Shown here in pieces: positions 1 to 62,164 of a DNA stretch of 64,000 nucleotides (positions are counted from its first letter, which is position 1; every line of letters starts with the position of its first letter). The notes beneath the pieces are model-generated. The model saw nothing but the letters and a program-made list of their open reading frames with translations. It did not search any database and was not told the origin of the DNA. Origin of the DNA: a phage. Location of the stretch: assembly GCA_026066175.1 (NCBI GenBank), contig GCA_026066175.1_4721.1. The stretch is one strand, 5' to 3'. The position numbers were made by a program, and so were the translations under genes.

Positions 1-31
1 TCGCTTCGTCGAGGTAGGGGAGGATAACACT

Positions 32-1786
32 TTATGCCGCTACATACCCAGGCCAACGTTCTCTTGGCCAGTTTGTTGCGCCCTGTCCAACGTTGTCCTT
101 ACCAGAAGTTACATTACTTACGTCCCAACCACTAAGATCCTGGTTAAATGCGGTGTTGTTGCGCATCATGAGGTCGATCCTACGTAACGATTGGGTATTC
201 CAGCCGGAAATGTCTTGGTTGAATGCCGCGTTGTAAGCAAACATGTTAACAACGTCTTGTAATTTTGAAGTGTTCCAGCCGCTTATATCGCTATTGAACT
301 GCATGTTCGAGAACATACTGCTAGCGTTGACAAGACTACCTGTTTTCCAGTTAACCAGCTTGTCCCCATCAAGTGCAACGCAGCTACTGAACATGTAACT
401 CATGTCGTTAACTTTGGATACATCCCATTTATCTAACCCGTTACCAACGAACTCGTAACAAGCTTGGAACATCCAGCTCATATCGGTAACCTGGCTCACA
501 TTCCATTTGCTAAAGTCGAGGTTGAGTTTTGCGCATCCGGAGAAGGTTTTATACATACTGGTGATACGACTAACATCCCATTCTTGAATGTTAGGATCAT
601 TAAGTATAGATAAGAATTTGAACAATTCGTCTAACGACGTCCATTTCTCTGGGATACGGTTTGGTACGGTACGGAGTGATGAAAGGTTACTGATTGACGG
701 AGAGCGGAACATACCGTTATCCCAATTTACGATTTCTGTAATGTTGGACCCACGGATCGTTTGGCGTCCGTTACCATTATACACAGACCCTGTTGCAGTT
801 ATTGTATATTCGTTTGTATCAGCATACGTATATTCAGCCTGTGTAGGCCACTCACCTATTACATCCCTATTCCCGTCGCCCCAATCAATGGAAATATCTA
901 TCCAGCCATCAAGATCTAGGGTAACGGTCCCGCCATTGGTCTTCAGGACGTATTTACCTGCATTGTCGGTATAATAACAAACAATCATCGCACCGTACAG
1001 GTTACCAATTTGCCAATCATCCTTTTGAGTTACCGCGATATGTGCTGTGCCACGTTGTAGGAAAAGAACCGTACGGTTCTCGTCAGTCTGTAATGTGGTT
1101 AATGCTTGAGCCTTATCATCGTCGGTAATTTCACCAGCTTCCACTAAAGCACTTAACATTCTTTCGAAGTAATCGATGGGTAATTGGCGTCCTACAGACA
1201 TATCAACTGATGGAACAGCGAGATCATCCAATGCGGCGGCAGTTGCAAGCACTAATGATCCATTGGTGGTGTCTGTTTCTTGGAGGTAATGCAGTCCCGT
1301 AATCTGGTACGCTTGAATGATTGTAATCAGATCCAGCGTATCGTTAATGACCTGTACTTGTAAATGTCCAGACCAAACATAGCTGCTTTCAGCAATCGGT
1401 AATTCGACCGACTGAATACCCGATGTTTCAAAACTGATCTTCTTATTAAGATCGGCTTCCAGGAAATCAACCGCGAGGTCGAAATTTATACCGTACTTTT
1501 CAGCGATGGAATCTATGATGTTCCTGAAAGCAACATCGGTACTTACGATGAATCGTAAAGGGATTCCTGTGAACGCATTAGCAATATCTCGACGAACATA
1601 CGTAAGTGATTGTTCGAAGAAATAGGGACTGTTATCTCCAGGTTTGATGGTTACCTGACACATTTCAGGATGTTCAACTGGGATGAACGATTCAAATTTA
1701 ACATCGGATTCCTTCAACGAAAGCATGTTCTTCCGGTTTACCAGCGCCAGAAGATCGGCTTTCCATCCAGGATAAACAGTAGACAT
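32..1786 (-). CDS. Fibre / receptor-binding-like protein with C-terminal DUF285-type repeats
   Basis: C-terminal tandem repeats of the form FNQDISGWNTS / WDVSKVNDMSYMF typical of DUF285 repeats; N-terminal ~150 aa paralogous to the N-termini of 45949-47403 and 5434-6300; start moved to MSTVYPGW (GGAGTG 5 nt upstream). Confidence 0.55.
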   Translation of the reverse strand: MSTVYPGWKADLLALVNRKNMLSLKESDVKFESFIPVEHPEMCQVTIKPGDNSPYFFEQSLTYVRRDIANAFTGIPLRFIVSTDVAFRNIIDSIAEKYGINFDLAVDFLEADLNKKISFETSGIQSVELPIAESSYVWSGHLQVQVINDTLDLITIIQAYQITGLHYLQETDTTNGSLVLATAAALDDLAVPSVDMSVGRQLPIDYFERMLSALVEAGEITDDDKAQALTTLQTDENRTVLFLQRGTAHIAVTQKDDWQIGNLYGAMIVCYYTDNAGKYVLKTNGGTVTLDLDGWIDISIDWGDGNRDVIGEWPTQAEYTYADTNEYTITATGSVYNGNGRQTIRGSNITEIVNWDNGMFRSPSISNLSSLRTVPNRIPEKWTSLDELFKFLSILNDPNIQEWDVSRITSMYKTFSGCAKLNLDFSKWNVSQVTDMSWMFQACYEFVGNGLDKWDVSKVNDMSYMFSSCVALDGDKLVNWKTGSLVNASSMFSNMQFNSDISGWNTSKLQDVVNMFAYNAAFNQDISGWNTQSLRRIDLMMRNNTAFNQDLSGWDVSNVTSGKDNVGQGATNWPRERWPGYVAA

Positions 1787-5421: not shown

Positions 5422-5433
5422 TTATACACCCCT

Positions 5434-6300: not shown

Positions 6301-6309
6301 ACCATGGGA

Positions 6310-6371
6310 GAGGCGAAAAAAAAACGAAAAAATAGGAAAACGGTGTTCATCCTTTTTAGGGGATGAACACC
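6310..6371 (-). terminator. Intrinsic terminator
   Basis: 11-bp stem GGTGTTCATCC / GGATGAACACC followed on the minus strand by a long U-rich tract. Confidence 0.65.
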
Positions 6372-6382
6372 GGATAACAAAA

Positions 6383-6961
6383 TTAATGAGGAATGAGAGA
6401 ACTTAATTCGCTTTCTTCGATAACGAAGGTTTCGTTTTGGTTATCGAGATTCGTCAGCAAGACTTGTCCGACCGTAAAACAATCACCGCCTTTCTTCGGT
6501 ACCCAAACCGGTTCGTTGGTTACCGAATCAGGATACCATTTAAAGCGGTTGGTGTCCAGGAAGAACGCTGCTTTGTTTTCATTATCGGTAGAACGATAAC
6601 TGATCAATGCAGGCCACTCAATCCATGTCTTGGTGCACGGCACATGCAGGGGATACCACGCACGCCAATACTTACCAGGACGTTTTGGATCCTCCCAGTA
6701 TTCTGCCGTTAGCACGGCATCTTTATACTGTTTCTGCATCAGCATCTCAAGAACAGGTTCGTTGCCGAGCGGTAAACGCACCAATTCTCTTTCGACGTAC
6801 GCGGTATCGTCAAAAACGTCTCGATGTAAGTGGGTGGATACCCCAACAGGGGGTTTCGCGATCGTTGGTTTACGTTTCTGCTCTTTACGACGTGTATACA
6901 GAAACAATCCGATCGCTACTGCCACGAGTAAAACAAACAACACTACATTAATCCAATTCAT
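6383..6961 (-). CDS. Membrane-anchored hypothetical protein
   Basis: N-terminal hydrophobic helix VVLFVLLVAVAIGLFLY followed by basic RRKEQKRK; strong intrinsic terminator immediately downstream. Confidence 0.5.
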   Translation of the reverse strand: MNWINVVLFVLLVAVAIGLFLYTRRKEQKRKPTIAKPPVGVSTHLHRDVFDDTAYVERELVRLPLGNEPVLEMLMQKQYKDAVLTAEYWEDPKRPGKYWRAWYPLHVPCTKTWIEWPALISYRSTDNENKAAFFLDTNRFKWYPDSVTNEPVWVPKKGGDCFTVGQVLLTNLDNQNETFVIEESELSSLIPH

Positions 6962-7653
6962 TCGTCAACGTCTCCTTCTGCAAACAGGGTCAATTTGATT
7001 TCTGGATCATAGAACATGGTGATCACACCATCTTGTTCTGCTGAACGCTGCGCTGTCCATATTAACTGTTCATCCCGAATATCAAATTTATACCGTTCGT
7101 CGGTAACCACCGCTTCTGCATCGACGTAATGATAAATGGCACCTTCAGGATTCTCAATCCAGCCACGTACCATCAAACGGTCTTTCTGCTTACGTGTGAA
7201 GAATCGATACGGATCTTCACATGTTTGCCAAACATCACCGCTTTCGCTTACCAGTTCGTCATACACCTTCGAAAGCTCGTCAGGCACTGGAATCAGAATG
7301 TTATCCTGATAACTTGACCAGAAGCGACGTACGTCTTGTAATAGATCATCGCCCTGAAGTTCGATGGTTTCAGTATCATTGCCCTTTACAATTTCAATGC
7401 GGTCATGATAAACCCGAACCCAACCGTCATGCCAGTTATTACCATCAATCCGAAAAAGCAACGTATGAAAAACAACAACGTCGATATCGTCGAATGAGTC
7501 AAGTAACGCTTTAGCTGCTAACAACGGCGAATAATTCTTCGATTGCGTTGCTTTATGGATCTCTTCTTTGATGTACAGCTTTCCATGGATTGGGTGTTCT
7601 ATAACAAAACCACAGGAAAGCATGATGCTTCCTTGATAACGTGCTTCTTGCAT
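6958..7653 (-). CDS. Hypothetical protein
   Basis: 231-aa ORF in the minus-strand gene array; stop overlaps the start of the next gene. Confidence 0.45.
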   Translation of the reverse strand: MQEARYQGSIMLSCGFVIEHPIHGKLYIKEEIHKATQSKNYSPLLAAKALLDSFDDIDVVVFHTLLFRIDGNNWHDGWVRVYHDRIEIVKGNDTETIELQGDDLLQDVRRFWSSYQDNILIPVPDELSKVYDELVSESGDVWQTCEDPYRFFTRKQKDRLMVRGWIENPEGAIYHYVDAEAVVTDERYKFDIRDEQLIWTAQRSAEQDGVITMFYDPEIKLTLFAEGDVDE

Positions 7654-7738
7654 TTCTATTCCTCAAAATAATGATTGTCTTTTTACGTGACACGATTACA
7701 GTTTTATCAGTTCACAGGTTACTGATTTTCGGTAAGAA

Positions 7739-8269
7739 TTAATTTTGGCCTATCACCTTTTCTACCGCTTCAAGAATAGCGTCGTTTAGTCGTTGCCCAC
7801 GTTCCTCCATTGTTCCACCATCGCGATGTTTGTAGTTAACCGAGCAGATATCCCAAGCCCAGTAAGGCATCTCCGATGACTTGTCATCTCTGGTAGGATC
7901 GTTCAATCTGCTAGCACTAATCTGCCAGATGAAATCGGCGGGTTGTTGCCGTAAGCATTCACCTATAGCGTCTATATAAGACAACCCTTCGGTCGTCATA
8001 GCGACGATGACGTGCGGGTGTTTATTAACAACCTTCGTGATTGGTTTCCCATTAACAACCACTATACGGGTTACGTTATCGTGCCCTTCGCACGACCACA
8101 TCGGTGCGATACCAGGCGCATCCAATAATGCCTGACAGGCGGGTAAAATACGCGGTTCGACTACACCTGCTTCGATAGCAGCCCGTGCGCGCTCTTTAAA
8201 ACGCATCAGTTGTTCTTCAGTGATAACAAAAGAAAACATGGTTACTCCTTTCTGGTTCTTCCCCTCCAC
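7739..8269 (-). CDS. Hypothetical protein
   Basis: 176-aa ORF; no motif recognised. Confidence 0.45.
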   Translation of the reverse strand: MEGKNQKGVTMFSFVITEEQLMRFKERARAAIEAGVVEPRILPACQALLDAPGIAPMWSCEGHDNVTRIVVVNGKPITKVVNKHPHVIVAMTTEGLSYIDAIGECLRQQPADFIWQISASRLNDPTRDDKSSEMPYWAWDICSVNYKHRDGGTMEERGQRLNDAILEAVEKVIGQN

Positions 8270-8311
8270 AGCCTCAGGAAGAGAAGAACCATTTGTTACG
8301 TTGACGGATGA

Positions 8312-8569
8312 TCAAAATCCACTGATTGGATTGTTCAACGCTTTATCGCGGATTTTAATTGCCGCCAACATCGCTTTCTGATACGAATCGTAGGTATCGA
8401 CAGAAACCGTTAAATCGACCAATTTCTCTAACACAGATTCAGTCGCTTTTACGCGAACGCGAAACTTGGTAATGACATTATCTTTGTTACGGTAAACTGT
8501 GATGTGATGCAACGGCTGAACTTTAGTTTTATTAGTTTTAACGGATTTAGTTACTTTGATCGTTTTCAT
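8312..8569 (-). CDS. Hypothetical small protein
   Basis: Start moved to MKTIKVTK (AGGAAACCGCC upstream); the longer ORF-track start would translate through the terminator hairpin at 8624-8641. Confidence 0.4.
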   Translation of the reverse strand: MKTIKVTKSVKTNKTKVQPLHHITVYRNKDNVITKFRVRVKATESVLEKLVDLTVSVDTYDSYQKAMLAAIKIRDKALNNPISGF

Positions 8570-8623
8570 GGCGGTTTCCTTTTTAACTAGGATGATTGCA
8601 TATACAGGGTTTAACGGCATAAA

Positions 8624-8641
8624 CCCTCCCCGGAGGGAGGG
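8624..8641 (-). terminator. GC-rich stem-loop with TTTATGCC tail
   Basis: CCCTCCC / GGGAGGG stem; minus-strand tail TTTATGCCG. Confidence 0.5.
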
Positions 8642-8658
8642 CATACGAACAGTTCGAT

Positions 8659-9153
8659 TTACGTATGTCGGCGTTTGCCAAAGAAAATGTGATTATCTAC
8701 CACGGTGATGTTGGTAGCATGCTTTTTGAAATGTTTGGGGCGAAGGTGTTTCGCGTTGAAGAATACGGCTCCTTTAGTTGGATCAGCTTTTCGATAGGCG
8801 GGCATATCGTTACGTAAGACAGCAACTTTACGCGCGATTGCTCTTGCACGGTCGAAAGCGACTTTATCGGTAATGACGATCCTTTTACGTTTTGTCCAGG
8901 GGAATTGACCTCTTTGCAGAACCACATCTCTGACGTTCGTAGGGAATCGGGAATCCATCGAACGGTTATGTATTAAAAACGCCACGGAGTATTGTCCTTT
9001 CAACGATTCGCCTCTGGCCTCCATATACACGGCACAGGCGACGATCTCTTTCCGACAATCTATTCTAGGCCCTGCGTTCACCGATGCTTGACTGAACGGT
9101 GTGATAAGTAACATAACAAGCCCTAAAACCAACGTGTGTAAAATACCTTGCAT
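8659..9153 (-). CDS. Secreted cell-wall hydrolase, SleB / Hydrolase_2-like
   Basis: Signal-peptide-like N-terminus MQGILHTLVLGLVMLLITPFSQASV; motifs YMEARGES, HNR..RFPT, RGQFPW match the SleB-type hydrolase pattern; GAGGT upstream of the internal Met. Confidence 0.55.
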   Translation of the reverse strand: MQGILHTLVLGLVMLLITPFSQASVNAGPRIDCRKEIVACAVYMEARGESLKGQYSVAFLIHNRSMDSRFPTNVRDVVLQRGQFPWTKRKRIVITDKVAFDRARAIARKVAVLRNDMPAYRKADPTKGAVFFNAKHLRPKHFKKHATNITVVDNHIFFGKRRHT

Positions 9154-9398
9154 CTTAATAACCTCACGATAAGGTGCTGTCCACTGGCGTTTTCTTGTTG
9201 TCAACGCGTGCTGTTAATCAGCGGGCAGCAGGTTAGCGTCAGATGTTTGCCCGACATCCACGACAGAAATAAACGGTACTGAAAATACGGTCTCCTCTGG
9301 TTTGGCAATAAACATAACGTTGGATAACAGAACCCATTTCCCGCATCCAACGCGGTAAAGGTGTACATCGTTTGAATTCATATAGTTTCTCAAAGATG

Positions 9399-9701
9399 TT
9401 AACCTCTACCGTCGAGCCACAGGTTATATTTCTCACGGGTAGTCGGATCACGATAGATACGACGATACCTTAATTCCGGTAATAACCCGGTTCGTACCAA
9501 CTCATCCGTTATCTTCCGACGTCGTTCTACGCCATCATGAATACGACGTAACTCACGGAAGTTAAGCGGTGTTTGTTTCATCAGAATTCCCATTACAACC
9601 GGGCGATGATCGATTTCGTACAGTGACAATACTCCACGTATTTCGTCTAACACGCGTTCTCGATCGATCAATATACGGTCGTGGTATTTTAACTGTTCCA
9701 T
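9399..9701 (-). CDS. Hypothetical protein
   Basis: ORF in array; start tentatively placed at MEQLKYHD. Confidence 0.3.
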   Translation of the reverse strand: MEQLKYHDRILIDRERVLDEIRGVLSLYEIDHRPVVMGILMKQTPLNFRELRRIHDGVERRRKITDELVRTGLLPELRYRRIYRDPTTREKYNLWLDGRG

Positions 9702-10066
9702 AACGACCACTCTTGTTCTACACGTCGACATACCGGTAATAAACACCACCAACATAAGGCGCTAAACGATAACAGCGCGAGAATAGCTGTGATTCCATTC
9801 AGGTGTCCGCTGATTTGCCATGAAGTAAACATGAATAGAACATAACCTAAACCATACCCGATGAACCGTTTGATGTTATATACCGATTGTACACAGATGT
9901 ACAGCAACGGGATTTGCCCAACAATAGAAATAACGGATCGTACCACAAAGTTAATACGCGCTGACGTATCAATGAAATCCATTGTAACCGCATTAATACC
10001 AATCAACGTAAGTGTGATACCGAGAAAGATTTTTATATACGTGCTGAATTTAGTTGCTTTTTGCAT
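9689..10066 (-). CDS. Multi-pass membrane protein
   Basis: Several hydrophobic segments (IFLGITLTLIGINAV, ILALLSFSALCWWCLL). Confidence 0.4.
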   Translation of the reverse strand: MQKATKFSTYIKIFLGITLTLIGINAVTMDFIDTSARINFVVRSVISIVGQIPLLYICVQSVYNIKRFIGYGLGYVLFMFTSWQISGHLNGITAILALLSFSALCWWCLLPVCRRVEQEWSLWNS

Positions 10067-10277
10067 TGTGCTTATTCCTACCTACATTCCTCAACAATGT
10101 AACGATAACGAATACCGCTATCATCAAGAAGATGAACCATAACCCAACGTTGATTCGGGCTGCAGGTTCATCGACGAGAAAGAACATCCATCCGCAGAAC
10201 CCGATGACAATCCATACCAACACCATCCCGGTTAATCCACGTAACAGCAGATGTCCCATAATCCCTCCTGATTTCAT
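10050..10277 (-). CDS. Small membrane protein (holin-like by size and topology only)
   Basis: 75 aa with two hydrophobic stretches (VLVWIVIGFCGWMFFLV, LWFIFLMIAVFVIVTLL) and a basic C-terminus. Confidence 0.4.
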   Translation of the reverse strand: MKSGGIMGHLLLRGLTGMVLVWIVIGFCGWMFFLVDEPAARINVGLWFIFLMIAVFVIVTLLRNVGRNKHNAKSN

Positions 10278-10444
10278 TTATCCTGATACAACGATAACTC
10301 CAGTCGTAGAAATACCGCTAACGCAATAGACAGTAACGCTACGCGTACCCACATCCCACCTTGAACGCTGTTATACAGCATAAAGACCAGAGCGATGCCG
10401 CCCATATGCAGGCGGCACTTATCGAAAAGTGTTGGTTTATACAT
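10274..10444 (-). CDS. Small membrane protein (ORF absent from the supplied track)
   Basis: Hand translation: MYKPTLFDKCRLHMGGIALVFMLYNSVQGGMWVRVALLSIALAVFLRLELSLYQDK; stop overlaps the start of 10050-10277 (ATGA). Confidence 0.3.
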   Translation of the reverse strand: MYKPTLFDKCRLHMGGIALVFMLYNSVQGGMWVRVALLSIALAVFLRLELSLYQDK

Positions 10445-10664
10445 AGGAAATTAATCGTCGTGTGATTTTTACTTTACCTTTACCTGGGCCTTTCTTGCGA
10501 CGATTCAACAGACGGATGCGGTATCCGGTTACGGTATCCCCATCGTAATCAGCGCGTAACGATAACGAGAGAGCACGATGTTCCCGATCAACGCCCGGGT
10601 TGTTATAGAAACGATTGAAACTTAAAAGATGATTACTTGGAATCATTGTGTTATCCTTACTCAA
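10437..10664 (-). CDS. Small basic protein with KKGPGKGK motif
   Basis: C-terminus RLLNRRKKGPGKGKVKI resembles three small ORFs at 30600-31193. Confidence 0.35.
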   Translation of the reverse strand: MSKDNTMIPSNHLLSFNRFYNNPGVDREHRALSLSLRADYDGDTVTGYRIRLLNRRKKGPGKGKVKITRRLISYV

Positions 10665-11024: not shown

Positions 11025-11062
11025 GAGCGTTTCCTTAATAACTTAAATAGAACAATATCGTA

Positions 11063-11878: not shown

Positions 11879-11928
11879 AATTACATCCTCTTAATACGGA
11901 TTGATTTTAGATTGATAACAACATAACA

Positions 11929-11947
11929 GCCCTCCGAAGTGGAGGGC
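11929..11947 (-). terminator. Stem-loop terminator
   Basis: GCCCTCC GAAGT GGAGGGC with a U-rich minus-strand tail. Confidence 0.45.
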
Positions 11948-11955
11948 CTGGTTAA

Positions 11956-16195: not shown

Positions 16196-16220
16196 TTCTT
16201 TTCCTTCTTATCGGCATAAA

Positions 16221-16239
16221 CCCTCCCATACCGGGAGGG
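16221..16239 (-). terminator. GC-rich stem-loop with TTTATGCC tail
   Basis: CCCTCCC / GGGAGGG; minus-strand tail TTTATGCCG. Confidence 0.5.
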
Positions 16240-16244
16240 TACAA

Positions 16245-20107: not shown

Positions 20108-23230
<3,123 letters not shown>

Positions 23231-23256
23231 GTTGGGAGGGACACAGGCGAATCACC

Positions 23257-33692: not shown

Positions 33693-33766
33693 TTTAGCCT
33701 CCTCTCTTAGCTTCAGAGAATTCTCAAAATCCGTTAGTTTTGATAGACCGAGTAAGACGGCATAAA

Positions 33767-33787
33767 AGCCTCCCTCCATGGGAGGCT
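33767..33787 (-). terminator. GC-rich stem-loop with TTTTATGCC tail
   Basis: AGCCTCCC / GGGAGGCT; minus-strand tail TTTTATGCCG. Confidence 0.5.
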
Positions 33788-33800
33788 TTATTACGATAAT

Positions 33801-35362: not shown

Positions 35363-35414
35363 ACAAACATAACCCTCCTCCTTCCCTTACGGGTTGGAGG
35401 AGGGGATTATGCTG

Positions 35415-41754: not shown

Positions 41755-41794
41755 CGTCACCTCCTTTAATAAGTAGCAGGAATGCGGCATAGAA

Positions 41795-41812
41795 CCCTCC
41801 CCGGAGGGAGGG
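41795..41812 (-). terminator. GC-rich stem-loop with TTCTATGCC tail
   Basis: CCCTCCC / GGGAGGG. Confidence 0.5.
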
Positions 41813-41821
41813 TATGTAATG

Positions 41822-45854: not shown

Positions 45855-45861
45855 TTAAGAA

Positions 45862-45890
45862 GCTCTGCCCGAAGGCAGAGCTTTATGCCG
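45862..45890 (+). terminator. Terminator after the SNF2 helicase gene
   Basis: GCTCTGCC CGAA GGCAGAGC followed by TTTATGCCGG. Confidence 0.6.
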
Positions 45891-47403: not shown

Positions 47404-47422
47404 AAAAAAATAGTTAGCATAA

Positions 47423-47456
47423 CTTCCTCCCTACCCATAACGGGCGGGGAGGAAGG
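47423..47456. terminator. Probable bidirectional terminator between convergent genes
   Basis: CTTCCTCCC / GGGAGGAAG; GTTTATG on the plus strand and a T9 run on the minus strand. Confidence 0.55.
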
Positions 47457-47472
47457 TTTATGTGGTTATGAC

Positions 47473-48749: not shown

Positions 48750-51011
48750 TTACAATTCGAAATCTTCATCGATAACGCGTTGGGTTAGCACCTTGTCGCT
48801 GAAGAACTCCACCTTACGTTGATGGTATTTCCGATGTGCTTCAATCGACGTACACACCAGATACCAGAACGTGGGTGTCATACCCTCGAACTTCCCTTTC
48901 AGCTGACGTAGTCGACCTAACACCTGAATGTTACCAGTTCTCGACCCCATCGCTAACGTCATGAACGTCATCACCAAGTCAGGAAGATCGATTCCTGTAC
49001 CAGCCGATTTTACCGTTGTCACACTGATATCATTATCCAGTAACACCATGAAATCTTCTTCAGCGGTATAAGGACCTATCTCCAACTCAGGGATACGTTC
49101 ACTTAAGTAATGCGATAACGACTTGCACATATCAACGGTTGCACAATACACCAACATCTTCATGCCTTCCTGATATTGGTTCATGAAACCTTTGATAATA
49201 ACCGTATAGATAAAGTTGAAATAGGCGAGTTTGAGTTGCTTATTCTTCATGATAGACTGTTCGAATACCGTGTGAGAATAAGAACCTCCAAAGCCTTTGT
49301 ATCGGACTTTATCCGTACTGCGTAGTCGATACGTCACCGCATTTACCGCGATGTATTTCTTGTATTCACATTTCGCATAACGTGCTTCTTTCGGATACAT
49401 CAAATACAGCATCCGCTCGATGAACGGATCGTCAGACACCGCCGTTGCCGACAGATAAATGATTTCCGGAATATTCGCGTAACACTTCACTTTGAACAAG
49501 AAATGCAGAGCTTCGTGACATTCATCGTGGATTAACAATCCAATGCCTGTTTTCTCCCAGAACTCGACTGGATGGAAAACATAAGGTGCGACACAGTTGT
49601 TCTTTTCATAATCGGTTATATAACGCTGAAACATGTTCAGTGAGAATAACGCAATTTTGAAATCCAACTCACCTTGTTCTACCAACGTCTGAAATTCCAA
49701 CATGCTGTAACGAGGAATGTCGGGATGCGGTGGGTCAGACTGGGCTGTACCACGTATCTCGATAACATCACCTGGTTCCATACCGAAGAAACTTAGCAGT
49801 GAGCTACGCCATCCAGGCATGTACCTCGGTGACAGAATGATGCCCGTCCGTACACCACGTCGGAAGGTGATCTCCTGCGACATTGCGGTGTTGTGCGTGA
49901 CGATATGGTCTTTAATAACATAAAGGCTTTCGTCGTTGTCCACCGTGATGCAACGTGCCTTCGCTTTCACCGTCGGCACGATGCCGCCAATCGCTAAACC
50001 AGGAAGCGTGTTAACGGGAAGATCATCTGGAATCTCAATGCCGTCAGGAATAAGCTTAAGCAAATCGGAATGGTAAATTAATGTCTCCATCGTGTAACTA
50101 TTGATGGGGCATTTATACGCGATTCCCCCTAACCGATAAGCCAACTCCCAGACCTCGGTCATTATCTGCGAATCGGTGGTTCTGACCGCAAGGTGAGCCC
50201 ACCCTTCTTCAACACGCAGCACGCAACGATCTTTGATGAGTTCTCTGAAACGATCAAGACCCACGAGTTCTTTCGGTTCGTAAAGTCGGATTCTTACCGG
50301 ACGAGATCGTGACGATCTGTCATTAAGACGTTCCATGATTTCACTCGTGCTGAGCACCTTGTCAGGATCCGTGCATTGCCAGAGATGATCACCACACGCT
50401 TCAACCATTCGTCCATCTTCAAAGAAGACAGCGTAAAGCTGAATATCGTCATGATCAAAGATAGCAGTTACGTTCGTCGGTAAACCATCCGCGCCGATGA
50501 CCTCATCACCCACCTGGAGCTCACCAATCGGCTTCCAACCGCTTGGAACCTTAACGGGTGTATGGAGAGCCAATGCTTTCCCAGACCCCGTGCCTGCGGT
50601 GTTTAGGCTCATTCTGAAAGGGGTATCCTTACCCCCATCCATGTACTCCAACCATTCTTGCTGATCTTCACGCCACGGAAACTTCCAGTTCTTCACAAAC
50701 TCCACTTCCTTACCTGGAACCGGATCGTGGTAAACGATTTCCAACCACTCCTTTCGAATTCCTCGAGAAAAGATAAAATCCAAAAACGACTTCAGCTGTT
50801 CACGAAGTAAGTAGACCTCGCTATAATCGCTTCTTGCTGCGGCGTAGGTGTTGATGGTATCGGTGACCATTCTCCGTGTACGAGGGTCGCGTCGTTTCCG
50901 TAGATGCAAACAACGGTCTCGAAGGTAATGGCCAATCAAATGGGCAAATCGAAGTCCGTATCCGCTCAGCTTCATGCCATGCGAGAAGACGTCGATACGA
51001 GCTAACTTCAT
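48750..51011 (-). CDS. SF2 (DExH) helicase carrying an intein-like insertion in motif I
   Basis: Host motifs NTAGTGSGK | T (AGTGSGKT after excision), LLIHDECHEA, YLSATA, SAGTGIDLPDLV; about 229 aa inserted between K and T. Confidence 0.65.
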   Translation of the reverse strand: MKLARIDVFSHGMKLSGYGLRFAHLIGHYLRDRCLHLRKRRDPRTRRMVTDTINTYAAARSDYSEVYLLREQLKSFLDFIFSRGIRKEWLEIVYHDPVPGKEVEFVKNWKFPWREDQQEWLEYMDGGKDTPFRMSLNTAGTGSGKALALHTPVKVPSGWKPIGELQVGDEVIGADGLPTNVTAIFDHDDIQLYAVFFEDGRMVEACGDHLWQCTDPDKVLSTSEIMERLNDRSSRSRPVRIRLYEPKELVGLDRFRELIKDRCVLRVEEGWAHLAVRTTDSQIMTEVWELAYRLGGIAYKCPINSYTMETLIYHSDLLKLIPDGIEIPDDLPVNTLPGLAIGGIVPTVKAKARCITVDNDESLYVIKDHIVTHNTAMSQEITFRRGVRTGIILSPRYMPGWRSSLLSFFGMEPGDVIEIRGTAQSDPPHPDIPRYSMLEFQTLVEQGELDFKIALFSLNMFQRYITDYEKNNCVAPYVFHPVEFWEKTGIGLLIHDECHEALHFLFKVKCYANIPEIIYLSATAVSDDPFIERMLYLMYPKEARYAKCEYKKYIAVNAVTYRLRSTDKVRYKGFGGSYSHTVFEQSIMKNKQLKLAYFNFIYTVIIKGFMNQYQEGMKMLVYCATVDMCKSLSHYLSERIPELEIGPYTAEEDFMVLLDNDISVTTVKSAGTGIDLPDLVMTFMTLAMGSRTGNIQVLGRLRQLKGKFEGMTPTFWYLVCTSIEAHRKYHQRKVEFFSDKVLTQRVIDEDFEL
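49890..50576 (-). mobile_element. Intein-like element inside helicase motif I (protein residues ~146-374)
   Basis: Begins ALALHTPVKVPSGWKPIGELQVGDEV and ends CITVDNDESLYVIKDHIVTHN followed by Thr; removing it restores AGTGSGKT. Confidence 0.55.
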
Positions 51012-53047
51012 AACGTGATTACATCCTCCGGTTTAGGTTCTTTACGCGGTAGAAGCATGTAGTCGATCGGATGATCTGGCTTCATGGTTGGGATATAACT
51101 GTTCGGGTTTTGGAACGCATCCAGTTGCTCTTGGTGAGCGAACTTCATACTCAAGGAGCGCATGTTCATGTTCTTCTTGAAGGTACTGAAATAACGAGTC
51201 GTTCCCTGTTTCGGCATGCGGTAATCTTTCGTGTGTGGTGAACGAATCATACTCGCGTAGAGAATAACGTCCAGATGCGATAGATTCATTCGTAAACGTT
51301 GCGCACACAGACGATGCCAATAATACAGTACGTTGGCTACTTCTTCTGGTGTCGCTTCATCTTCCGAAAGGAATCCTGCACTGAACGAACCTTTCCCGAA
51401 TTTGAATTCACGTTCGATTTCTTTTGCGTATTCCATCATGTTTTTATGGATGAGTGGCATCTGGAATAGCGTCCGTGAATTGTCCCAATGTTTCAAGTCG
51501 AAGATCACAATCCCGTCTGCTGTTACTTCCCAGCTATGGCGTTTGAGATAACGGATAAACGCTTTGCTTGGTACAACAGGACGTCCACAGAAATCGAAAT
51601 TGACTTTGAGTTTACGATAGCTCTCATCTTTCCTGTCGTAAATCTCCATATCGCAAAGCGTCATGTTGAACAGACGTTGCGGGATAAGCGAACTGATCTC
51701 TTCCGCTTCAGCTACATCGTACAACATGTTCGCCAGACCGAGTTTCATCTTAATCAGCACGTGTTTGCCTTTCAGCTCACGGGCTAATTTGATGTCGTTC
51801 ATGTTCTGGCTGTAACGAAGGATATGTTGATATTCCGGCGGGATTGGTGACGTAGACACGGTGGACGAACCATCGTGATGTTTGGTCGAAAGAATGTTCT
51901 GGGTAACCTGTTGTGAACCTGTACGTGCTGAGCAGTCTCCGATGTTGTCGGTCAATGCAAAGTTATGGCTTAATTCACCATAGCACGTTGCACAGACACC
52001 AGCAGGATCAGAATGATGACAGTAACAAACGGAACGCATGTTCACAATGGTACCGATCAATTCTTTCATGTGAGGCTGTATCGACAACAGCGAACCATCT
52101 TCACGTAAGATGAATCGACCGTGGAAACCTTTAAGATCGGTTTCATCACGTATCGGCATCGGAATGGTTTCTCTGCTTCCACAATCACCAGGATGCAGAC
52201 GTTGTACAACCGCCGTTGCGATTTGCAGCTCACGTCCGAAATATTCTGACTTCTTAATCTGCTCCTTGTTGAACAACAAAGATTTTGCCGCAGAGCGACT
52301 TTCTTTTAAGCTGTCCGGAAGCGAGATCAAGCCTGCTGCATACGAGCGCATCACTGGGTCACGGAAGATCTCCGAGTTGATATCGGTTAAGAAACCACGC
52401 ATCCCAATACACTGCAATACCTGTCCGATTGACACGTGTTCGGTTCTTACCGCACGTGCGATCGGGTTGGCATGCAATGTTTTATCGGTACTTAAAACTT
52501 TTGTTAGTTTCTTGTATGCGCTCTCAATACCTTCGCGGGTGGGTTCCGCTTCAGCGATGATTTTCTTCACTTCGGGATGTACGGTAATCTGATAAAAATC
52601 ATCCGCACAGATGGTCGTTACGTATTCCTCCAACGCATACGTAAAGAAGTTATAAACGTGGTTAAACATATCGAACAACGCTTTCCAGAGAACCTCACGA
52701 TTCTCTTGCGGATACGCATACATGCATTGACGATAGGCTGCGCTTTGTAATGCAACGGAAGAACCTGCCGTAAACTTGCGTTTATCCACCAGGTTCTCTT
52801 TCGTTAACGGTGTCTCAGGATACATGCGATGTAAAGACCAATGCATGTAGCTAAAGAAAATGCGTCGCGCACGCAATTCATGAACACCATCGTCCATCTC
52901 GATATACACACGGTCATTAGGCTGTGCCCACTCGAACACCTCATCAACCGGCCAATGCATAAGCTCTCGCGCCCGTACACGGCGTTTCGTGGTGATCGTC
53001 TGTACTGTATTCATTATTTTTACTTTCCGATTAAGTGGTTTTATCAT
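51008..53047 (-). CDS. Large hypothetical protein with a Cys cluster
   Basis: 679-aa ORF, ATGA-coupled to the helicase gene; CYCHHSDPAGVCATCYG; no family recognised. Confidence 0.5.
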   Translation of the reverse strand: MIKPLNRKVKIMNTVQTITTKRRVRARELMHWPVDEVFEWAQPNDRVYIEMDDGVHELRARRIFFSYMHWSLHRMYPETPLTKENLVDKRKFTAGSSVALQSAAYRQCMYAYPQENREVLWKALFDMFNHVYNFFTYALEEYVTTICADDFYQITVHPEVKKIIAEAEPTREGIESAYKKLTKVLSTDKTLHANPIARAVRTEHVSIGQVLQCIGMRGFLTDINSEIFRDPVMRSYAAGLISLPDSLKESRSAAKSLLFNKEQIKKSEYFGRELQIATAVVQRLHPGDCGSRETIPMPIRDETDLKGFHGRFILREDGSLLSIQPHMKELIGTIVNMRSVCYCHHSDPAGVCATCYGELSHNFALTDNIGDCSARTGSQQVTQNILSTKHHDGSSTVSTSPIPPEYQHILRYSQNMNDIKLARELKGKHVLIKMKLGLANMLYDVAEAEEISSLIPQRLFNMTLCDMEIYDRKDESYRKLKVNFDFCGRPVVPSKAFIRYLKRHSWEVTADGIVIFDLKHWDNSRTLFQMPLIHKNMMEYAKEIEREFKFGKGSFSAGFLSEDEATPEEVANVLYYWHRLCAQRLRMNLSHLDVILYASMIRSPHTKDYRMPKQGTTRYFSTFKKNMNMRSLSMKFAHQEQLDAFQNPNSYIPTMKPDHPIDYMLLPRKEPKPEDVITL

Positions 53048-53608: not shown

Positions 53609-53720
53609 AATCTCATTTCCTCTTCTCTGTTAGGATAAATGACATGCTGGATAACGTTGCCTTTGCATATATTGCTTTATTTCCGTCAGAAATAACGGAA
53701 AATAAAAACAACGGCATAAA

Positions 53721-53752
53721 CCCCTCCCACCTCCACATGGGAGAGGGAGGGT
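53721..53752 (-). terminator. GC-rich stem-loop with TTTATGCC tail
   Basis: CCCTCCCACCTCC / GGGAGAGGGAGGG (imperfect); minus-strand tail GTTTATGCCG. Confidence 0.45.
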
Positions 53753-53757
53753 GTATG

Positions 53758-54120
53758 TTATTCTACATTATCTTCTACGGCTTCGGATTCATCCGCTTCT
53801 GCGAAGCTTTCCTGAACCGCAGTGGTATCCCAGTTCGCTGCGTAATCAGCCATGGCTTCGCGCAGCGCTTCTTCACCCGCATCACCAGCCAGGTCAAGTA
53901 CAACCAACCCTTGTGCGACGTTCTGCGCTACGGTATCGATAACCGTTGCATCCTCTTCAAAGCTACGTACCGGTTCAATGGTACCAACATCAACAGCGTA
54001 GTTCGTGGTTGCGGTAAGGACAGCAACCTGTAATGCGTTGCTGTCTTCGTCATGAAGTGCTGCTTCAATACCGATTGGACGGGCCAGTTCTTGCAGTGTC
54101 AATTTACGAATTAAGTTCAT
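53758..54120 (-). CDS. Highly acidic small protein
   Basis: 120 aa, Asp/Glu-rich throughout (e.g. EADESEAVEDNVE at the C-terminus). Confidence 0.45.
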   Translation of the reverse strand: MNLIRKLTLQELARPIGIEAALHDEDSNALQVAVLTATTNYAVDVGTIEPVRSFEEDATVIDTVAQNVAQGLVVLDLAGDAGEEALREAMADYAANWDTTAVQESFAEADESEAVEDNVE

Positions 54121-54494: not shown

Positions 54495-54612
54495 ACCAGG
54501 GATCCTCTTTAAGTGTTCACATTCTAGTGTTAAGCAGTTAAAATAAACCGTTCCTTTAATCAGCATAAGCATCCTCCTCCCACCGCACGGGCAGGAGGAG
54601 GCGTAATATGCG

Positions 54613-55033: not shown

Positions 55034-57202
55034 TTAGCTTTCGCAATCATCCGCATCGATGATCTGACCACCAGCAACATTCAACTGGTGATACAATATC
55101 CTCAACGCACGGTTACCCCCAATGGGATACTTCTCGAAGTTGGTCGCAATCGGAATCGCAGAGGGTTTGTCGGTTGCATAGATGCTTTCCGTGATGCTAT
55201 CCACCTGTTTCGGGTTGTTCGCGTAATCCATGAATACGCTTGCGAACCATCCACCGGCGAAGGCGGTGACTTCGCGATGTTCAGATTCACCACAATAACG
55301 TGTTGGTTGCTCTTTACCAGGAGAACTGTACTTATCACTGTTGCTGAGTTTCGACGGCAAACCATGTGCTTGCAGTTTAGGAATACCTACCGCAGACCAA
55401 TCGTTTGCTGTCTTCTCCAACATCATGATGTACGTATCACCAATCGCAATATCGTTCTTGGTGGTTCGCCATTGACCAGAACGACCACGATAGCGTACAG
55501 GGCCTTTCTTCAACGGGAACTCTCGAATCAGGTTCTCCATACGCTCCGAGCCTGCTGCGATACTGTCTGTCGGGATATAGACTTCTGTACCATGGCGTTG
55601 TACGTAACGTAGATGGTCCCATTTATCGTCATCTGTGATACAATGTTTCTCAACAACCTGCTCCACAAACTCAGGACTAACGATATAGTAGTAACGCATC
55701 AATGTGTTCCATGCGGTTTCCAGATCGCCTGCATCCATTACCGGTTTCAGTTCACGCATGATCTGGTCGCCAACACCATTGATATACGGTGCGTTAACAC
55801 GACTTAAACTCATCCTTTTAATTACCGTGCTGTCGTCGAACATAAAGTCCGCAACATTCCCCCATTGGTCTACGGGCATCTCGTCATCTTCCATGATATC
55901 CGTTACGACGAATTTATCACCCGCCATACCGGTAAATTTAAATCCGATACCAGGGACCACATCGTAGGTATACGTGATGGTCACACGCCAGTCATCAAGA
56001 TTCTCCTTACGATAATCACGGGTCGGCAACACATGACGTAGCTGACCGTTCGGATTGCGAATGTCAATACCATGCTCAGCATCAGCGAGGTTCAACCACC
56101 ACATCACCGTCTGATGATGTCTGATGGGTGTACCAGCACGTTCACGTTCGTATTTACGCACCGCATCCTGAATACGGGTATACAGCAGACCGATGGCGTT
56201 TTCATATTTCAGGAATTGACGATACGGAGGACGCATCTTCTCTTCCATCATAATCGCACGCTCGCGGGCTTGACATCCAGAACGACGATGTCGATCGCTG
56301 ACAACATCGATATCCGTTACACGCGCATTCGGCTCAGCGTAAGTGAGATCATCGTAAACATAATCCACACGCTGAAGATTGCACGTCATCATGTCAACGA
56401 CGCTGAGGATAGGATCGATTTCGCGTGTTGCTGCAAGTAACCCATCTTTACGAATACGCTCACCGTTCTCGGGTATTGCTTGATATACCTCGTCATCACC
56501 GTAGAGATTGATTGGGTATCGCGATTTACCTGATGTAATTGTTCGCTTCTCAATACCGGTACTGGTGAAATGCTTCAATACACCACGACGAGCAACACCA
56601 CCATCTTCAATACACTGGTAGAAGCTACCGAAACACACCTTGCAATCGCGACCGTAACCCCACTCGCGTGTTTCTTGATTGATCGCTGGGCTTTCCATCA
56701 AACGAGAATATCGCGGTACAATCTGGCCTCGACGAAGGGAATGGAACAAGTTGGTTGGTCGAAAACGGAAACCGTACTGCTGATGCATGATGTGATGCTC
56801 AGGCACTTCAAGCAAGCGTAGCTCGTGACGGTTACCATCCTCTTGGTTTTCATACAGCACGTAATGCATCGTGTTTGTTTTGATGCTGTTTGCTGTATGT
56901 CCTGGTTGAAACCGCGGAATGATATCTATGATGCGAGATTCAACTGGAAACTCTACTGACCAAGTGTTCTGTCCGTACTGGTATTCAATCCCCGTCGTTA
57001 ATCGGGACGGCTTCGCATCTTTGATAACCAACGCTTGGCTAAGATGTCCACCAAACATCGCAGCGCGCTGTGCTGAGTTATAATGCAATAGCCCGTTAAG
57101 TCCAGTCCCTACACCCGTATACTCCTGTTTAATGGGAATGATTTTACCTTCAGCGATTGCCTGCTTCACAGATTCATAAAGAGGTTTTTCTTTATAATGC
57201 AT
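55034..57202 (-). CDS. Large hypothetical protein
   Basis: Start moved to MHYKEKPLYE (AGGAAG upstream); no family recognised. Confidence 0.5.
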   Translation of the reverse strand: MHYKEKPLYESVKQAIAEGKIIPIKQEYTGVGTGLNGLLHYNSAQRAAMFGGHLSQALVIKDAKPSRLTTGIEYQYGQNTWSVEFPVESRIIDIIPRFQPGHTANSIKTNTMHYVLYENQEDGNRHELRLLEVPEHHIMHQQYGFRFRPTNLFHSLRRGQIVPRYSRLMESPAINQETREWGYGRDCKVCFGSFYQCIEDGGVARRGVLKHFTSTGIEKRTITSGKSRYPINLYGDDEVYQAIPENGERIRKDGLLAATREIDPILSVVDMMTCNLQRVDYVYDDLTYAEPNARVTDIDVVSDRHRRSGCQARERAIMMEEKMRPPYRQFLKYENAIGLLYTRIQDAVRKYERERAGTPIRHHQTVMWWLNLADAEHGIDIRNPNGQLRHVLPTRDYRKENLDDWRVTITYTYDVVPGIGFKFTGMAGDKFVVTDIMEDDEMPVDQWGNVADFMFDDSTVIKRMSLSRVNAPYINGVGDQIMRELKPVMDAGDLETAWNTLMRYYYIVSPEFVEQVVEKHCITDDDKWDHLRYVQRHGTEVYIPTDSIAAGSERMENLIREFPLKKGPVRYRGRSGQWRTTKNDIAIGDTYIMMLEKTANDWSAVGIPKLQAHGLPSKLSNSDKYSSPGKEQPTRYCGESEHREVTAFAGGWFASVFMDYANNPKQVDSITESIYATDKPSAIPIATNFEKYPIGGNRALRILYHQLNVAGGQIIDADDCES

Positions 57203-57233
57203 AGGACTTCCTATTATCGAATTGAGGTACGTC

Positions 57234-57587
57234 ATGTCTAATACGCCCCTGAACGACTTTCTTAAGACAAACCCCGATGACCTCATCCACAACCTTGATT
57301 TCAGGAACGTTGTTGAGATGCATCTGGAATATTTCAAAAATGCCGGTTTGGTTTCTACGATAGACATACCACCCGAACGCGCCTACGAATTCGATGGTAA
57401 CTTTTATGGATTATGTCGGGTTATGCTTGGCGAAGGCAGTGAACCTATGCACTGGGTTACCCTAAGAATCAACGGTTATCGTGATCCTACGGAATACACC
57501 GCCGATGTCCTAACGATGAAGATTGTCGATTCAAGCGCCATCAACACGTTAAAACAGCAATATCGCACAATCCACTACAGCGCTTAA
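57234..57587 (+). CDS. Hypothetical protein
   Basis: Start at MSNTPLNDFL with GAGGT upstream; followed by a plus-oriented terminator hairpin. Confidence 0.45.
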   Translation: MSNTPLNDFLKTNPDDLIHNLDFRNVVEMHLEYFKNAGLVSTIDIPPERAYEFDGNFYGLCRVMLGEGSEPMHWVTLRINGYRDPTEYTADVLTMKIVDSSAINTLKQQYRTIHYSA

Positions 57588-57592: not shown

Positions 57593-57630
57593 CCCTCCCA
57601 CGGCGTAAAGCGGCGGGAGGGCATTTATGC
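57593..57630 (+). terminator. Terminator after plus-strand gene 57234-57587
   Basis: CCCTCCC...GGGAGGG followed by CATTTATGCCG. Confidence 0.5.
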
Positions 57631-57653
57631 CGTCGTTCGATGCTTTTAGCGCA

Positions 57654-60577: not shown

Positions 60578-62164
60578 TTATTTTTTTCCTCTTAAATTTA
60601 CTACATGTTCATTTAATCGAACAACTAATTGCACAAGCTGCTGACGGATATCTGCTGGGCAAAGCATCAATCCTTTACGATCAGCGGGGACTTTCTCAAG
60701 GATTTCAGGGCCTGCTGCTGAAACATCCCAATCCCATTCACAAAACGCATCGGCTACCATGTTAATACCGACAACCGGTAAAGTTGTACGTTCATCTTCA
60801 TACATGGCATGCGGATACAATTTATTGACGGTAATAATCTCCTGTGGTTTTAATTGGTGGATAATCTGATAAACATCATCACGTTTAACCTGGATGCCTA
60901 CGGTTAATGCGGCCAGTTGAGGGAAACCCCAATGGTCTAACAAGCATGCCGCAATCGCTAACGCTTTTGCCTGATGCACGGCTTCAATCGGTGCCAGACT
61001 TCTCGCCGGAAGATGGCTGTCCAACAACCATTGCGCCAGTGCTCGGCATCCGCGATTGATCGGTTTTAACTCAACGGTATCATCATGCTTCGCGTAGGTG
61101 TATCCGTCGTAACGTTTTGCGATACGCGCATACATGTCTTCAACCTTACCGTACGGTGCGGTTTCATCAACGTCGTGTAACACCCGTTCCATCTGGGTAA
61201 GATAAGCGATATCAAGAATGAGTACACGTGGTGAACGTTTATCTTTCACCATCAGCGCATCAATCACACCTTGGCTATCTTCATCTTGCGCATTCCCTCG
61301 CGGAGTTTTCTCACGTATGGGTCCGCTGAAACGACGTTCCGTACAGAGGTTATTCACATAACTGAAAATCAGCGTCACCAGATGCGTACAACTGACCAAC
61401 ACCCCATCTTTAACGACGGGCTGCACGGCTTGGTCCAAATCACGTACCGCAAGGCGTCTGACGATGGCTTGCGAACGCAACCAACCCGGCACTTTTTCTG
61501 TTGACATGTAATCCACGGTCATCGACAACGTGATCTTTTTATCGCCTGTCTGTGCACGGATATAGTCTTCCAGTCGGTCATAAGCTGCGATATCATGAAT
61601 GCGTGTTTTATACATCAGCGACATCGCCACTTCTTCTTTACGTACTGTCCCGTACGTTTTCCCCGCATCAATCAGGAACTCAGCCCAGATAGGCACCATC
61701 AAACGAACGTAAATCGCTAACGCGGTTAACTCAACATAATCGTTTCGTAAATAGGTTTTCTCTGGGATATCATCCTCGCCTAATGTCGTTTTCATATCCG
61801 GCGGTAATTTTACCCAACCTGGGGTATTACACAACGCCAGAATCTCTTCGTATACAACAGGTTTGTAGATTTCACCAACAGCGCGGCTCAGCTCCTCCAT
61901 TTGTTGTTGTGGCGCAATGTAATTATCCATCGCTTCACGTGCTTTAACGAACCCTTCAAAGATATCATCGGTTCGACGTGGGTTCTTTTGCTCTATCCAG
62001 GCAAGATACTTGTTAATCTCTCGCATCTGATTGCTGGCCATATCCCCATCGATCTTGATATACCCTTGGCCTGAAAATTCCACGGTACGTCCATCACGAT
62101 GTTTGATAAGATAATGGTCTAGCTTTTCTTTGCCTTGCGTCGTAATGACGGGCACAATGTGCAT
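60578..62164 (-). CDS. Hypothetical protein
   Basis: 528-aa ORF; preceded by promoter-like motif copy 3 and AAGAGG. Confidence 0.5.
   Translation of the reverse strand: MHIVPVITTQGKEKLDHYLIKHRDGRTVEFSGQGYIKIDGDMASNQMREINKYLAWIEQKNPRRTDDIFEGFVKAREAMDNYIAPQQQMEELSRAVGEIYKPVVYEEILALCNTPGWVKLPPDMKTTLGEDDIPEKTYLRNDYVELTALAIYVRLMVPIWAEFLIDAGKTYGTVRKEEVAMSLMYKTRIHDIAAYDRLEDYIRAQTGDKKITLSMTVDYMSTEKVPGWLRSQAIVRRLAVRDLDQAVQPVVKDGVLVSCTHLVTLIFSYVNNLCTERRFSGPIREKTPRGNAQDEDSQGVIDALMVKDKRSPRVLILDIAYLTQMERVLHDVDETAPYGKVEDMYARIAKRYDGYTYAKHDDTVELKPINRGCRALAQWLLDSHLPARSLAPIEAVHQAKALAIAACLLDHWGFPQLAALTVGIQVKRDDVYQIIHQLKPQEIITVNKLYPHAMYEDERTTLPVVGINMVADAFCEWDWDVSAAGPEILEKVPADRKGLMLCPADIRQQLVQLVVRLNEHVVNLRGKK

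Follow-up and report, generated by a model that had tools for sequence, protein, structure and literature searches.

What is the function of the GC-rich hairpin at positions 8624-8641 of a 64,000 nucleotide (nt) phage sequence (GenBank assembly GCA_026066175.1, contig GCA_026066175.1_4721.1; the whole stretch is hereafter called the window), and of the similar hairpins at other gene junctions along it? An earlier note on this DNA had listed several of them as terminator-like hairpins carrying a tail conserved beyond a simple U-tract. The comparisons described here give a probability of about 0.85 that the elements terminate transcription in a Goslar-like jumbo phage that carries multisubunit RNA polymerases of its own. 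They add members, from a second lineage and host genus, to a terminator family that was described in 2024, and are in that sense mostly known; that the window copies actually terminate transcription is predicted by homology with that family.

The window phage is, on sequence grounds, a Goslar-like nucleus-forming jumbo phage (Chimalliviridae). Its DNA is 87% identical to that of Escherichia phage vB_EcoM_Goslar, a nucleus-forming jumbo phage, with a collinear stretch at Goslar 103.5-162.5 kb, and a third genome of this lineage, L008, is present in IMG/VR. Three of the five phiKZ non-virion RNA polymerase (nvRNAP) subunits, namely gp68, gp71-73 and gp74, have homologues encoded in the window:

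51008..53047, minus strand: homologue of phiKZ nvRNAP subunit gp74 (PDB 7ogp_D, E = 1e-85)
55034..57367, minus strand: homologue of phiKZ nvRNAP subunit gp71-73 (PDB 7ogp_C, E = 7e-86)
60578..62164, minus strand: homologue of phiKZ gp68, the sigma-like fifth nvRNAP subunit (PDB 7ogp_B and 9rjs_B, E = 5e-28)

No tRNA genes were found in the window, and no Rfam family matched it at the curated gathering score.

A GC-rich hairpin was found at each of the junctions listed earlier (8624-8641, 16221-16239, 33767-33787, 41795-41812, 53721-53752, 45862-45890 and 57593-57630), and the proposed common stem CCCTCCC/GGGAGGG is exact at five sites (8624-8641, 16221-16239, 41795-41812, 53722-53751 and 57593-57621). 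The arms at 33765-33789 are GCCTCCC/GGGAGGC and those at 45860-45883 are GCTCTGCC/GGCAGAGC. While the listed hairpins are real, the list was incomplete: the family amounts to about 15 oriented copies in the window, with further members at 11928-11948, 23214-23249 and 54573-54601 (all minus strand) and two bidirectional palindromes at 35373-35404 and 47423-47455. Predicted folding energies (dG) of the window elements range from -13 to -27 kcal/mol. The elements are as follows:

13..39, plus strand: candidate copy cut off by the edge of the window; GGTAGGGGAGG as 3′ arm, followed after 7 nt by TTTATGCCG; 5′ arm outside the window
8615..8642, minus strand: predicted terminator after the endolysin-homologue open reading frame (ORF) 8659-9204; hairpin GCCCTCCC-TCCG-GGGAGGGT, then TTATGCCG; dG -15.1
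11919..11948, minus strand: predicted terminator with degenerate tail; GGCCCTCC-ACTTC-GGAGGGCT, then GTTATGTTG
16212..16240, minus strand: predicted terminator; ACCCTCCC-GGTAT-GGGAGGGT, then TTATGCCG; stem 4 nt past the stop of ORF 16245-16688
23206..23249, minus strand: predicted terminator with long stem; CGCCTGTGTCC..GGACACAGGCG, then TTATGCCG; dG -26.8
33758..33789, minus strand: predicted terminator; AAAGCCTCCC-ATGGA-GGGAGGCTTT, then TATGCCG
35365..35414 (hairpin 35373-35404), both strands: predicted bidirectional palindromic terminator; tails TTATGTTTG (minus) and GATTATGCTG (plus); dG -24 and -25
41785..41819, minus strand: predicted terminator; ACCCTCCC-TCCG-GGGAGGGT, then TCTATGCCG
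45860..45890, plus strand: predicted terminator after helicase ORF 43599-45854; AAGCTCTGCC-CGAA-GGCAGAGCTT, then TATGCCG
47415..47465 (hairpin 47423-47455), both strands: predicted bidirectional terminator between convergent ORFs 45949-47403 (plus) and 47473-47811 (minus); TATG tail on each strand; dG -23.5 and -23.1
53712..53760 (hairpin 53722-53751), minus strand: predicted terminator; hairpin, then GTTTATGCCG; TGTATG past the stem on the opposite strand
54561..54601, minus strand: predicted terminator; CCTCCTCCTGCC-CGTGC-GGTGGGAGGAGG, 4-nt spacer ATGC, then TTATGCTG
57593..57632, plus strand: predicted terminator after the small ORF 57222-57587 (plus); hairpin, then CATTTATGCCG

At 41785..41819 a TATG also stands directly past the stem on the opposite strand (41813-41816). 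In the edge candidate (positions 11-40) 10 nt separate the 3′ arm from TATG, and the convergent ORF 32-1801 (minus) has its stop codon in the TTA of the tail; for the 5′ arm of this candidate, neither Goslar homology nor an exact IMG/VR match was found.

The placement of these elements is that expected of hairpins at gene 3′ ends, as the earlier note had proposed: stems of family members begin 3-30 nt past the stop codon of a co-oriented gene. Copies occupy two convergent junctions in the window, 47423-47455 and 57593-57632, the latter facing ORF 57654-58934 (minus) with no co-oriented gene downstream; the palindrome at 35373-35404 instead lies between two minus-strand ORFs. Junctions 11925, 53718 and 57626 were classed by hand from the Goslar annotation. 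Goslar itself has 25 tandem and 16 convergent copies. Among the perfect hairpins of that genome, those with a TATG tail make up 12 of 34 sense-tandem and 11 of 24 sense-convergent ones, compared with 3 of 36 antisense and 3 of 48 intragenic ones, and those with a U-tract tail number one or two per placement class. Most convergent Goslar junctions carry a palindrome of 30-32 nt with TATG tails on both strands. These palindromes form a family of their own (about 12 Goslar sites, few positions varying), in which outer arms CCCTCYYCC / GGRRGAGGG enclose an inner CCC-tetraloop-GGG hairpin, and the window palindrome at 35373-35404 is one of its members. The start and end of the deposited Goslar genome both fall inside one such bidirectional terminator palindrome (ccttccctgatgggttggaggagggTTATGCCGT; 1-35 and 237246-237277), indicating that the start point of the record was set within the element.

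Both halves of the element are over-represented. The exact tail TTTATGCC occurs seven times in the window (2.03 expected; 1 of 100 shuffles reached seven), always adjoining a hairpin arm, with TTCTATGCCG in its place at the 41795-41812 copy, and CCCTCCC occurs 12 times (2.59 expected; a count reached by no shuffle). By inspection, a hairpin precedes 9 of the 11 window copies of TATGCCG. Under a strict definition, a perfect stem of at least 7 base pairs with TATG 0-5 nt past it, 6 of 11 follow a qualifying stem, as do 0.25% of positions (binomial P = 1e-13), so that the tail is strongly enriched beside hairpins relative to its background frequency. The tetramer most enriched 0-4 nt past hairpin 3′ ends is TATG in the window (17 observed, 4.4 expected), in Goslar (71 and 18.7) and in a 50-kb stretch of phiKZ (25 and 3.1), and no enrichment of TTTT was seen in the same test. 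Nor was a U-tract of about five or more T in 8 nt found past the stems, window tails reaching TTTAT at most. A consensus terminator scan of positions 1-20000 detected, among the family, only 11928-11948, together with a weak candidate at 9759-9778. TATG is not specifically avoided on the sense strand of genes in seven phage sequences: its observed/expected ratio of 0.5-0.8 equals that of CATA, and this equal depletion includes phage sequences without TATG tails.

The window has 19 strong hairpin-plus-TATG elements and Goslar has 68, and the 5′ arm is pyrimidine-rich (at least 75% in the window set) in 13 of 19 and 42 of 68, respectively. An alignment anchored on TATG gives the tail as (T/A)-T-TATG-Y-Y-G-W-T, TATG standing 0-4 nt past the stem; in 12-15 window copies the tail is TTATGCCGT or TTATGYYG. 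Loops are mostly 4-5 nt. Since stem lengths of 18-36 nt align poorly, stem conservation was judged by counts of pair types and by comparison of orthologues. Stem positions are occupied by many pair types (C-G, T-A, G-C, A-T and G.U), so that pairing rather than sequence is conserved, although composition is still strongly biased.

Comparison of 13 orthologous element pairs between the window and Goslar showed where selection acts. Only 2 of 52 TATG positions differ (3.8%), compared with 7.2% of stem positions, 42% of loops, 27% of spacers, 26% of Y-Y-G (mostly C/T exchanges) and 20-22% of the flanks. At 8615-8642 the whole stem is swapped in Goslar for CCCTTCCTGC..GCAGGAAGGG, with the tail TTTATGCTGTTAAAC retained; in the Goslar counterpart of 11919..11948 the stem changes are compensated (GGTCCCCC..GGGGGCC) and TTTATACCG forms the tail; and two A-to-G changes in that of 23206-23249 give U.G pairs that are possible only in sense-strand RNA. 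The orthologue of 53712-53751 reads AACTATGTCG in both Goslar and L008, so that the T-run is gone and TATG is retained, and TATG is likewise retained in both genomes at 41785..41819. Other orthologue tails are CTTATGCCG and TTTATGCTG, and AACTATG or AATATG are also seen. Putative terminators are already marked in the Goslar record at the counterparts of 33765-33789 and 45860-45883; the former is the 'putative transcriptional terminator' at 132985-133005, and the latter (145042-145065) has a longer stem and the tail CATGCTG. Purifying selection acts on stem pairing and on TATG. The replacement of a stem with its tail kept, the loss of the T-run with TATG kept, and U.G pairs confined to the sense strand together show selection on an RNA hairpin plus TATG, not on a U-tract. 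The proposed conserved tail stands with a refinement: judged from these alignments, the conserved unit is TATG followed by Y-Y-G, and neither the T-run nor the exact TTTATGCC is conserved among orthologues.

Several individual sites differ in other ways. Between 35373-35404 and its Goslar counterpart (134586-134615) the central 14 nt are inverted (TTCCCTTACGGGTT and AACCCGTAAGGGAA) within identical outer arms, which points to inversion through the palindrome or replacement by an oppositely oriented copy. The minus-strand tail of 47423-47455 is followed by a T-run (47392-47414; TATGCTAACTATTTTTTTTTAC) of length 9 in the window and 11 in L008 and Goslar. Immediately downstream of the 53712-53751 element is a second, AT-rich hairpin followed by ATATG (53671-53712, minus; GTTGTTTTTATTTTCCGTTATTTCTGACGGAAATAAAGCAAT), also kept in Goslar, where a 31-codon ORF, Goslar_00167, has been annotated as beginning at the tail ATG of the 53712-53751 orthologue; this annotation looks doubtful. 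One of the very few U-tract hairpins of the window phage, at 43710-43738 (plus), is ordinary-looking, is followed by TTTTT and lies in a divergent gap just upstream of the likely start of the helicase gene. Its orthologue is annotated as a terminator in Goslar (142891-142915), and it could act as an attenuator in the 5′ untranslated region or end divergent or antisense transcripts.

Long-read mapping of RNA ends in phiKZ provides the closest match to the family. Oxford Nanopore Technologies (ONT)-cappable-seq located 133 termination sites in that phage, and their 3′ ends yielded the consensus BCCYCCCCHWWDGGGRRGGBYTTATKYYGT (Putzeys et al. 2024, Microlife, PMC10914365). Among six phages, ARNold predicted 84 intrinsic terminators, of which more than 70% came from phiKZ and shared the consensus motif (PMC10914365). 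A direct look at phiKZ DNA confirms the motif, one instance being GCCCTCCC-TTCG-GGGAGGGC-TTTATGTTGT downstream of the major head gene. Window copies such as CCCTCCC-TCCG-GGGAGGG-TTTATGCCGT match it nearly base for base: the 5′ arm is C-rich, the 3′ arm G-rich, the loop mostly a tetraloop and the tail TTAT-G/T-Y-Y-G-T, and in both cases the elements stand just after co-oriented genes, or bidirectionally between convergent genes, in genomes with phiKZ-type polymerases. Arms, tail, gene placement and phiKZ-type polymerase genes are thus all present in the window. The differences are that the window phage belongs to a Goslar-like lineage with E. coli as host, that Y-Y is mostly CC in the window and mostly TT, TC or CT in phiKZ, and that long palindromes in two tiers (30-32 nt) are a common form in the Goslar lineage. 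Motif A of 201phi2-1 (n = 59) strongly resembles the phiKZ motif according to its authors, whose statement is the source of the likeness drawn here, and the same report describes 15 bidirectional terminators as well as stems lengthened by a second motif (PMC11512511). Transcript 3′ ends in phiKZ lie -1 to +2 nt from the G of the tail at six terminators when read from genome coordinates, and -4 to +3 nt (mode +1) at 18 terminators when read from table sequences, positions that may be off by about 1 nt through text extraction. Mapped RNA 3′ ends coincide with the element in phiKZ, and by analogy would be expected to do so in the window.

In the proposed mechanism, a GC-rich RNA hairpin would form a few nt past the stop codon, its 5′ arm usually pyrimidine-only and its 3′ arm purine-only in this lineage. 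The polymerase would then release the transcript in or just past the tail (T/A)T-TATG-Y-Y-G, 5-8 nt beyond the stem, with the TATG core substituting for the U-tract of ordinary bacterial terminators. In the canonical bacterial intrinsic terminator, a U run is the defining second half. The window family resembles such terminators in having a GC-rich hairpin soon after the stop codon and, in its phiKZ form, RNA 3′ ends 5-8 nt past the stem, but its U run is short (TTTAT) or absent and a specific TATG-Y-Y-G is conserved instead. The Yersinia jumbo phage phiR1-37 (NC_016163), which also has its own multisubunit polymerases, carries one stem (CCCTATATCCC..GGGATATAGGG) at many gene ends, often bidirectional, but unlike the window family this stem is different and is followed by a T-rich tail, GTTTTATT, without TATG. 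The Erwinia phage Ea35-70 retains the TTATGCCG tail, but the purine-rich arm leads in several of its stems. The patterns in phiR1-37 (45-86 kb examined) and Ea35-70 suggest that terminator 'dialects' differ between jumbo-phage lineages.

Several points weigh against the terminator assignment. Function is argued from homology with phiKZ, although the polymerase subunit of the Goslar lineage shares only about 30% identity with its phiKZ counterpart, and ONT 3′ ends, with a resolution of about 2 nt, do not by themselves separate termination from processing. The tail is not universal in chimalliviruses, as U-tract terminators are found in Serratia phage PCH45 and a Salmonella SPN3US-like phage. 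Neither the Y-Y-G extension nor the strong pyrimidine/purine bias of the arms is explained by the terminator model. In addition, the phiKZ motif also precedes the early promoters P017, P028 and P099, so the virion polymerase, which uses a different promoter, probably stops there too.

One alternative use of a TATG behind a hairpin would be as a promoter, the hairpin stopping the upstream transcript and the tail starting nvRNAP transcription of the next gene. The phiKZ late promoter has exactly this consensus, with +1 at the G and all four bases needed (PMC4666361; PMC7598289), a co-oriented gene follows most window copies at 20-70 nt, the window and Goslar hardly differ at the four bases, and the phiKZ late starts P054, P075 and P078 are only 10-43 nt downstream of terminators. 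Those three starts, however, use separate TATGs; none of 12 phiKZ start sites in 100-150 kb is at the G of a tail, and among the starts inspected from P008 to P126 none begins at a hairpin-adjacent TATG, P049 and P075 using another TATG, 7-10 nt beyond the first. No hairpin accompanies the model promoter P119L, and hairpin-free TATG in Goslar intergenic DNA is not clearly above permutations (99 compared with 34-116). Tails are also at least as common at convergent as at tandem Goslar junctions, and bidirectional terminators carry them on both strands with no co-oriented gene following. Such a cassette is unlikely: tails kept on both strands at convergent junctions, and the lack of any inspected phiKZ start using one, indicate that TATG is part of the terminator, and the tail is probably not the promoter of the next gene.

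The earlier note had suggested a further role as an RNA-processing or protein-binding site; these are proposed roles for which no supporting evidence was found. Cleavage of UAUG/YY beside the hairpin by a host or phage endoribonuclease, leaving a protected 3′ end and separating cistrons, would suit a conserved single-stranded tail next to a structured element, which resembles a nuclease recognition site; ONT ends would look the same, and protective 3′ hairpins would be useful in a phage that encodes a 3′-5′ exoribonuclease (35781-37094). It is nonetheless quite improbable, as no support was found for such an enzyme or for matching 5′-monophosphate ends, the ARNold-predicted intrinsic terminators are mostly those of phiKZ bearing this motif, and relatives with U-tract terminators at the same kind of junction suggest a terminator job; exonuclease trimming, for its part, needs no conserved tail and would leave ends nearer the stem than the 5-8 nt observed. 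A dedicated protein, either a termination or antitermination factor or one that handles or exports mRNA from the phage nucleus, might read the hairpin plus UAUGYYG as RNA or DNA. Conservation of arm composition and tail across phiKZ, 201phi2-1, Goslar and Ea35-70 goes beyond the needs of folding, and antitermination is raised as a possibility by the authors of the 201phi2-1 report (PMC11512511); but no candidate factor is known, and the reversed stem polarity of Ea35-70, where the tail is kept, indicates that recognition does not universally depend on the stem sequence itself. We consider a binding site of this kind an outside possibility. A DNA-level repeat (a repetitive extragenic palindromic (REP)-like or mobile palindrome, or a recombination or packaging signal) without any role in transcription could account for the closely similar palindromes at about 12 Goslar sites and for the one orthologous copy with an inverted centre. 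This last explanation is very hard to sustain, being contradicted by orientation specificity (a tail on 35-46% of sense hairpins compared with 6-8% of antisense or intragenic ones), by U.G pairs tolerated on the sense strand only and by the phiKZ RNA 3′ ends that map at the motif; the stems also vary with compensation among copies.

If the elements are terminators, as we prefer, the resemblance of the tail to the phiKZ late promoter, (-3)TATG(+1), may itself be informative. The same four bases are equally intolerant of change in the two signals (PMC4666361; PMC7618050; PMC12809450), but in late promoters nothing is conserved downstream of TATG (PMC4666361), whereas the terminator tail continues Y-Y-G, and P119L differs further in having no adjacent hairpin. 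In a 2026 structure the non-template TATG (-3 to +1) is bound by the core beta-like GP123, not by the sigma-like gp68, in a pocket under the beta-lobe (PMC12809450). Because a core subunit stays with the polymerase during elongation and the non-template strand is single-stranded, the tail could be captured in promoter register. It is conceivable, and we put it forward tentatively, that the tail TATG mimics the promoter initiator, its capture in the GP123 pocket arresting the polymerase 5-8 nt past the hairpin and replacing the U-tract pause. This idea fits the near invariance of the four bases and the concentration of phiKZ 3′ ends at the G (mode +1). It also fits the complementary distribution of tail types: phiKZ, Goslar and Ea35-70 have TATG, whereas PCH45 and the SPN3US-like phage have U-tracts. 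Against it, the motif appears to end early units, transcribed by the virion polymerase, as well, which the GP123 pocket does not explain, and Y-Y-G is left unexplained. Goslar_00078, Ea357_266 and SPFM16_00043, compared as possible GP123 homologues, align with one another, but their 11-19% identity to phiKZ gp123 is unconvincing.

The suspicion that several ORFs had been started too far upstream was justified. Four ORFs (8312-8644, 22874-23230, 32829-33779 and 41479-41790) start inside a hairpin or at a tail ATG and so run through these elements; Goslar homologues are annotated as shorter for 8312-8644, 22874-23230 and 41479-41790, and 32829-33779 has no Goslar homologue. The idea that translation starts at the tail ATG, with GGAGG in the 3′ arm preceding it, was considered and rejected, as the frame of this ATG is inconsistent among copies: at 8620 it shares the frame of the downstream ORF and at 41790 it coincides with the mechanical ORF start, but it is out of frame at 16217 and opens a frame of only 9 codons at 33763.

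Some neighbouring genes also distinguish the window from Goslar. An 882-nt segment (32828-33709), about 50 nt downstream of the 33758-33789 terminator, is missing in Goslar, whose sequence passes directly from one flank to the other (132925/132928). Its product is a 316-aa protein containing a DUF7448 domain (ORF 32829-33779, minus), and the segment looks like a gene inserted directly behind a terminator. The helicase-like ORF 48750-51011 (minus), beside a polymerase subunit gene, has 690 additional in-frame nt (49884-50573) relative to Goslar_00164, giving 753 aa compared with 524 aa; Pfam gave no match, and the extra piece could be an inserted domain or an intein-like element. ORFs 32-1801 (minus) and 45949-47403 (plus) are paralogues with N-terminal DUF7941 and BspA-like DUF285 leucine-rich repeats. 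The former has no collinear Goslar counterpart, the tail-fibre genes gp090 and gp091 being found at that place, and in Goslar it matches the gp161 paralogue best (47% identity). ORF 35781-37094 (minus; Goslar gp147) carries the 3′-5′ exoribonuclease domain mentioned above (Rv2179c-like, Pfam E = 3e-16), making hairpin-protected mRNA 3′ ends more relevant in this phage.

The phiKZ terminator grammar reaches Goslar-type E. coli phages and Erwinia phage Ea35-70, and does not extend to the PCH45 and SPN3US types. In a phage lineage that is almost unannotated, the elements mark precise gene and operon boundaries and allow several over-long ORF starts to be corrected. As Goslar is a main model of the phage nucleus, its terminators should be useful for the design of reporters and engineered phages. 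The terminator word TATG-Y-Y-G contains the polymerases' own promoter initiator, and one protein pocket might read both signals. If that is true, a single four-base word would be both start and stop signal for phiKZ-type polymerases, which would account for why U-tracts are missing in the phiKZ, Goslar and Ea35-70 types but present in the PCH45 and SPN3US types.

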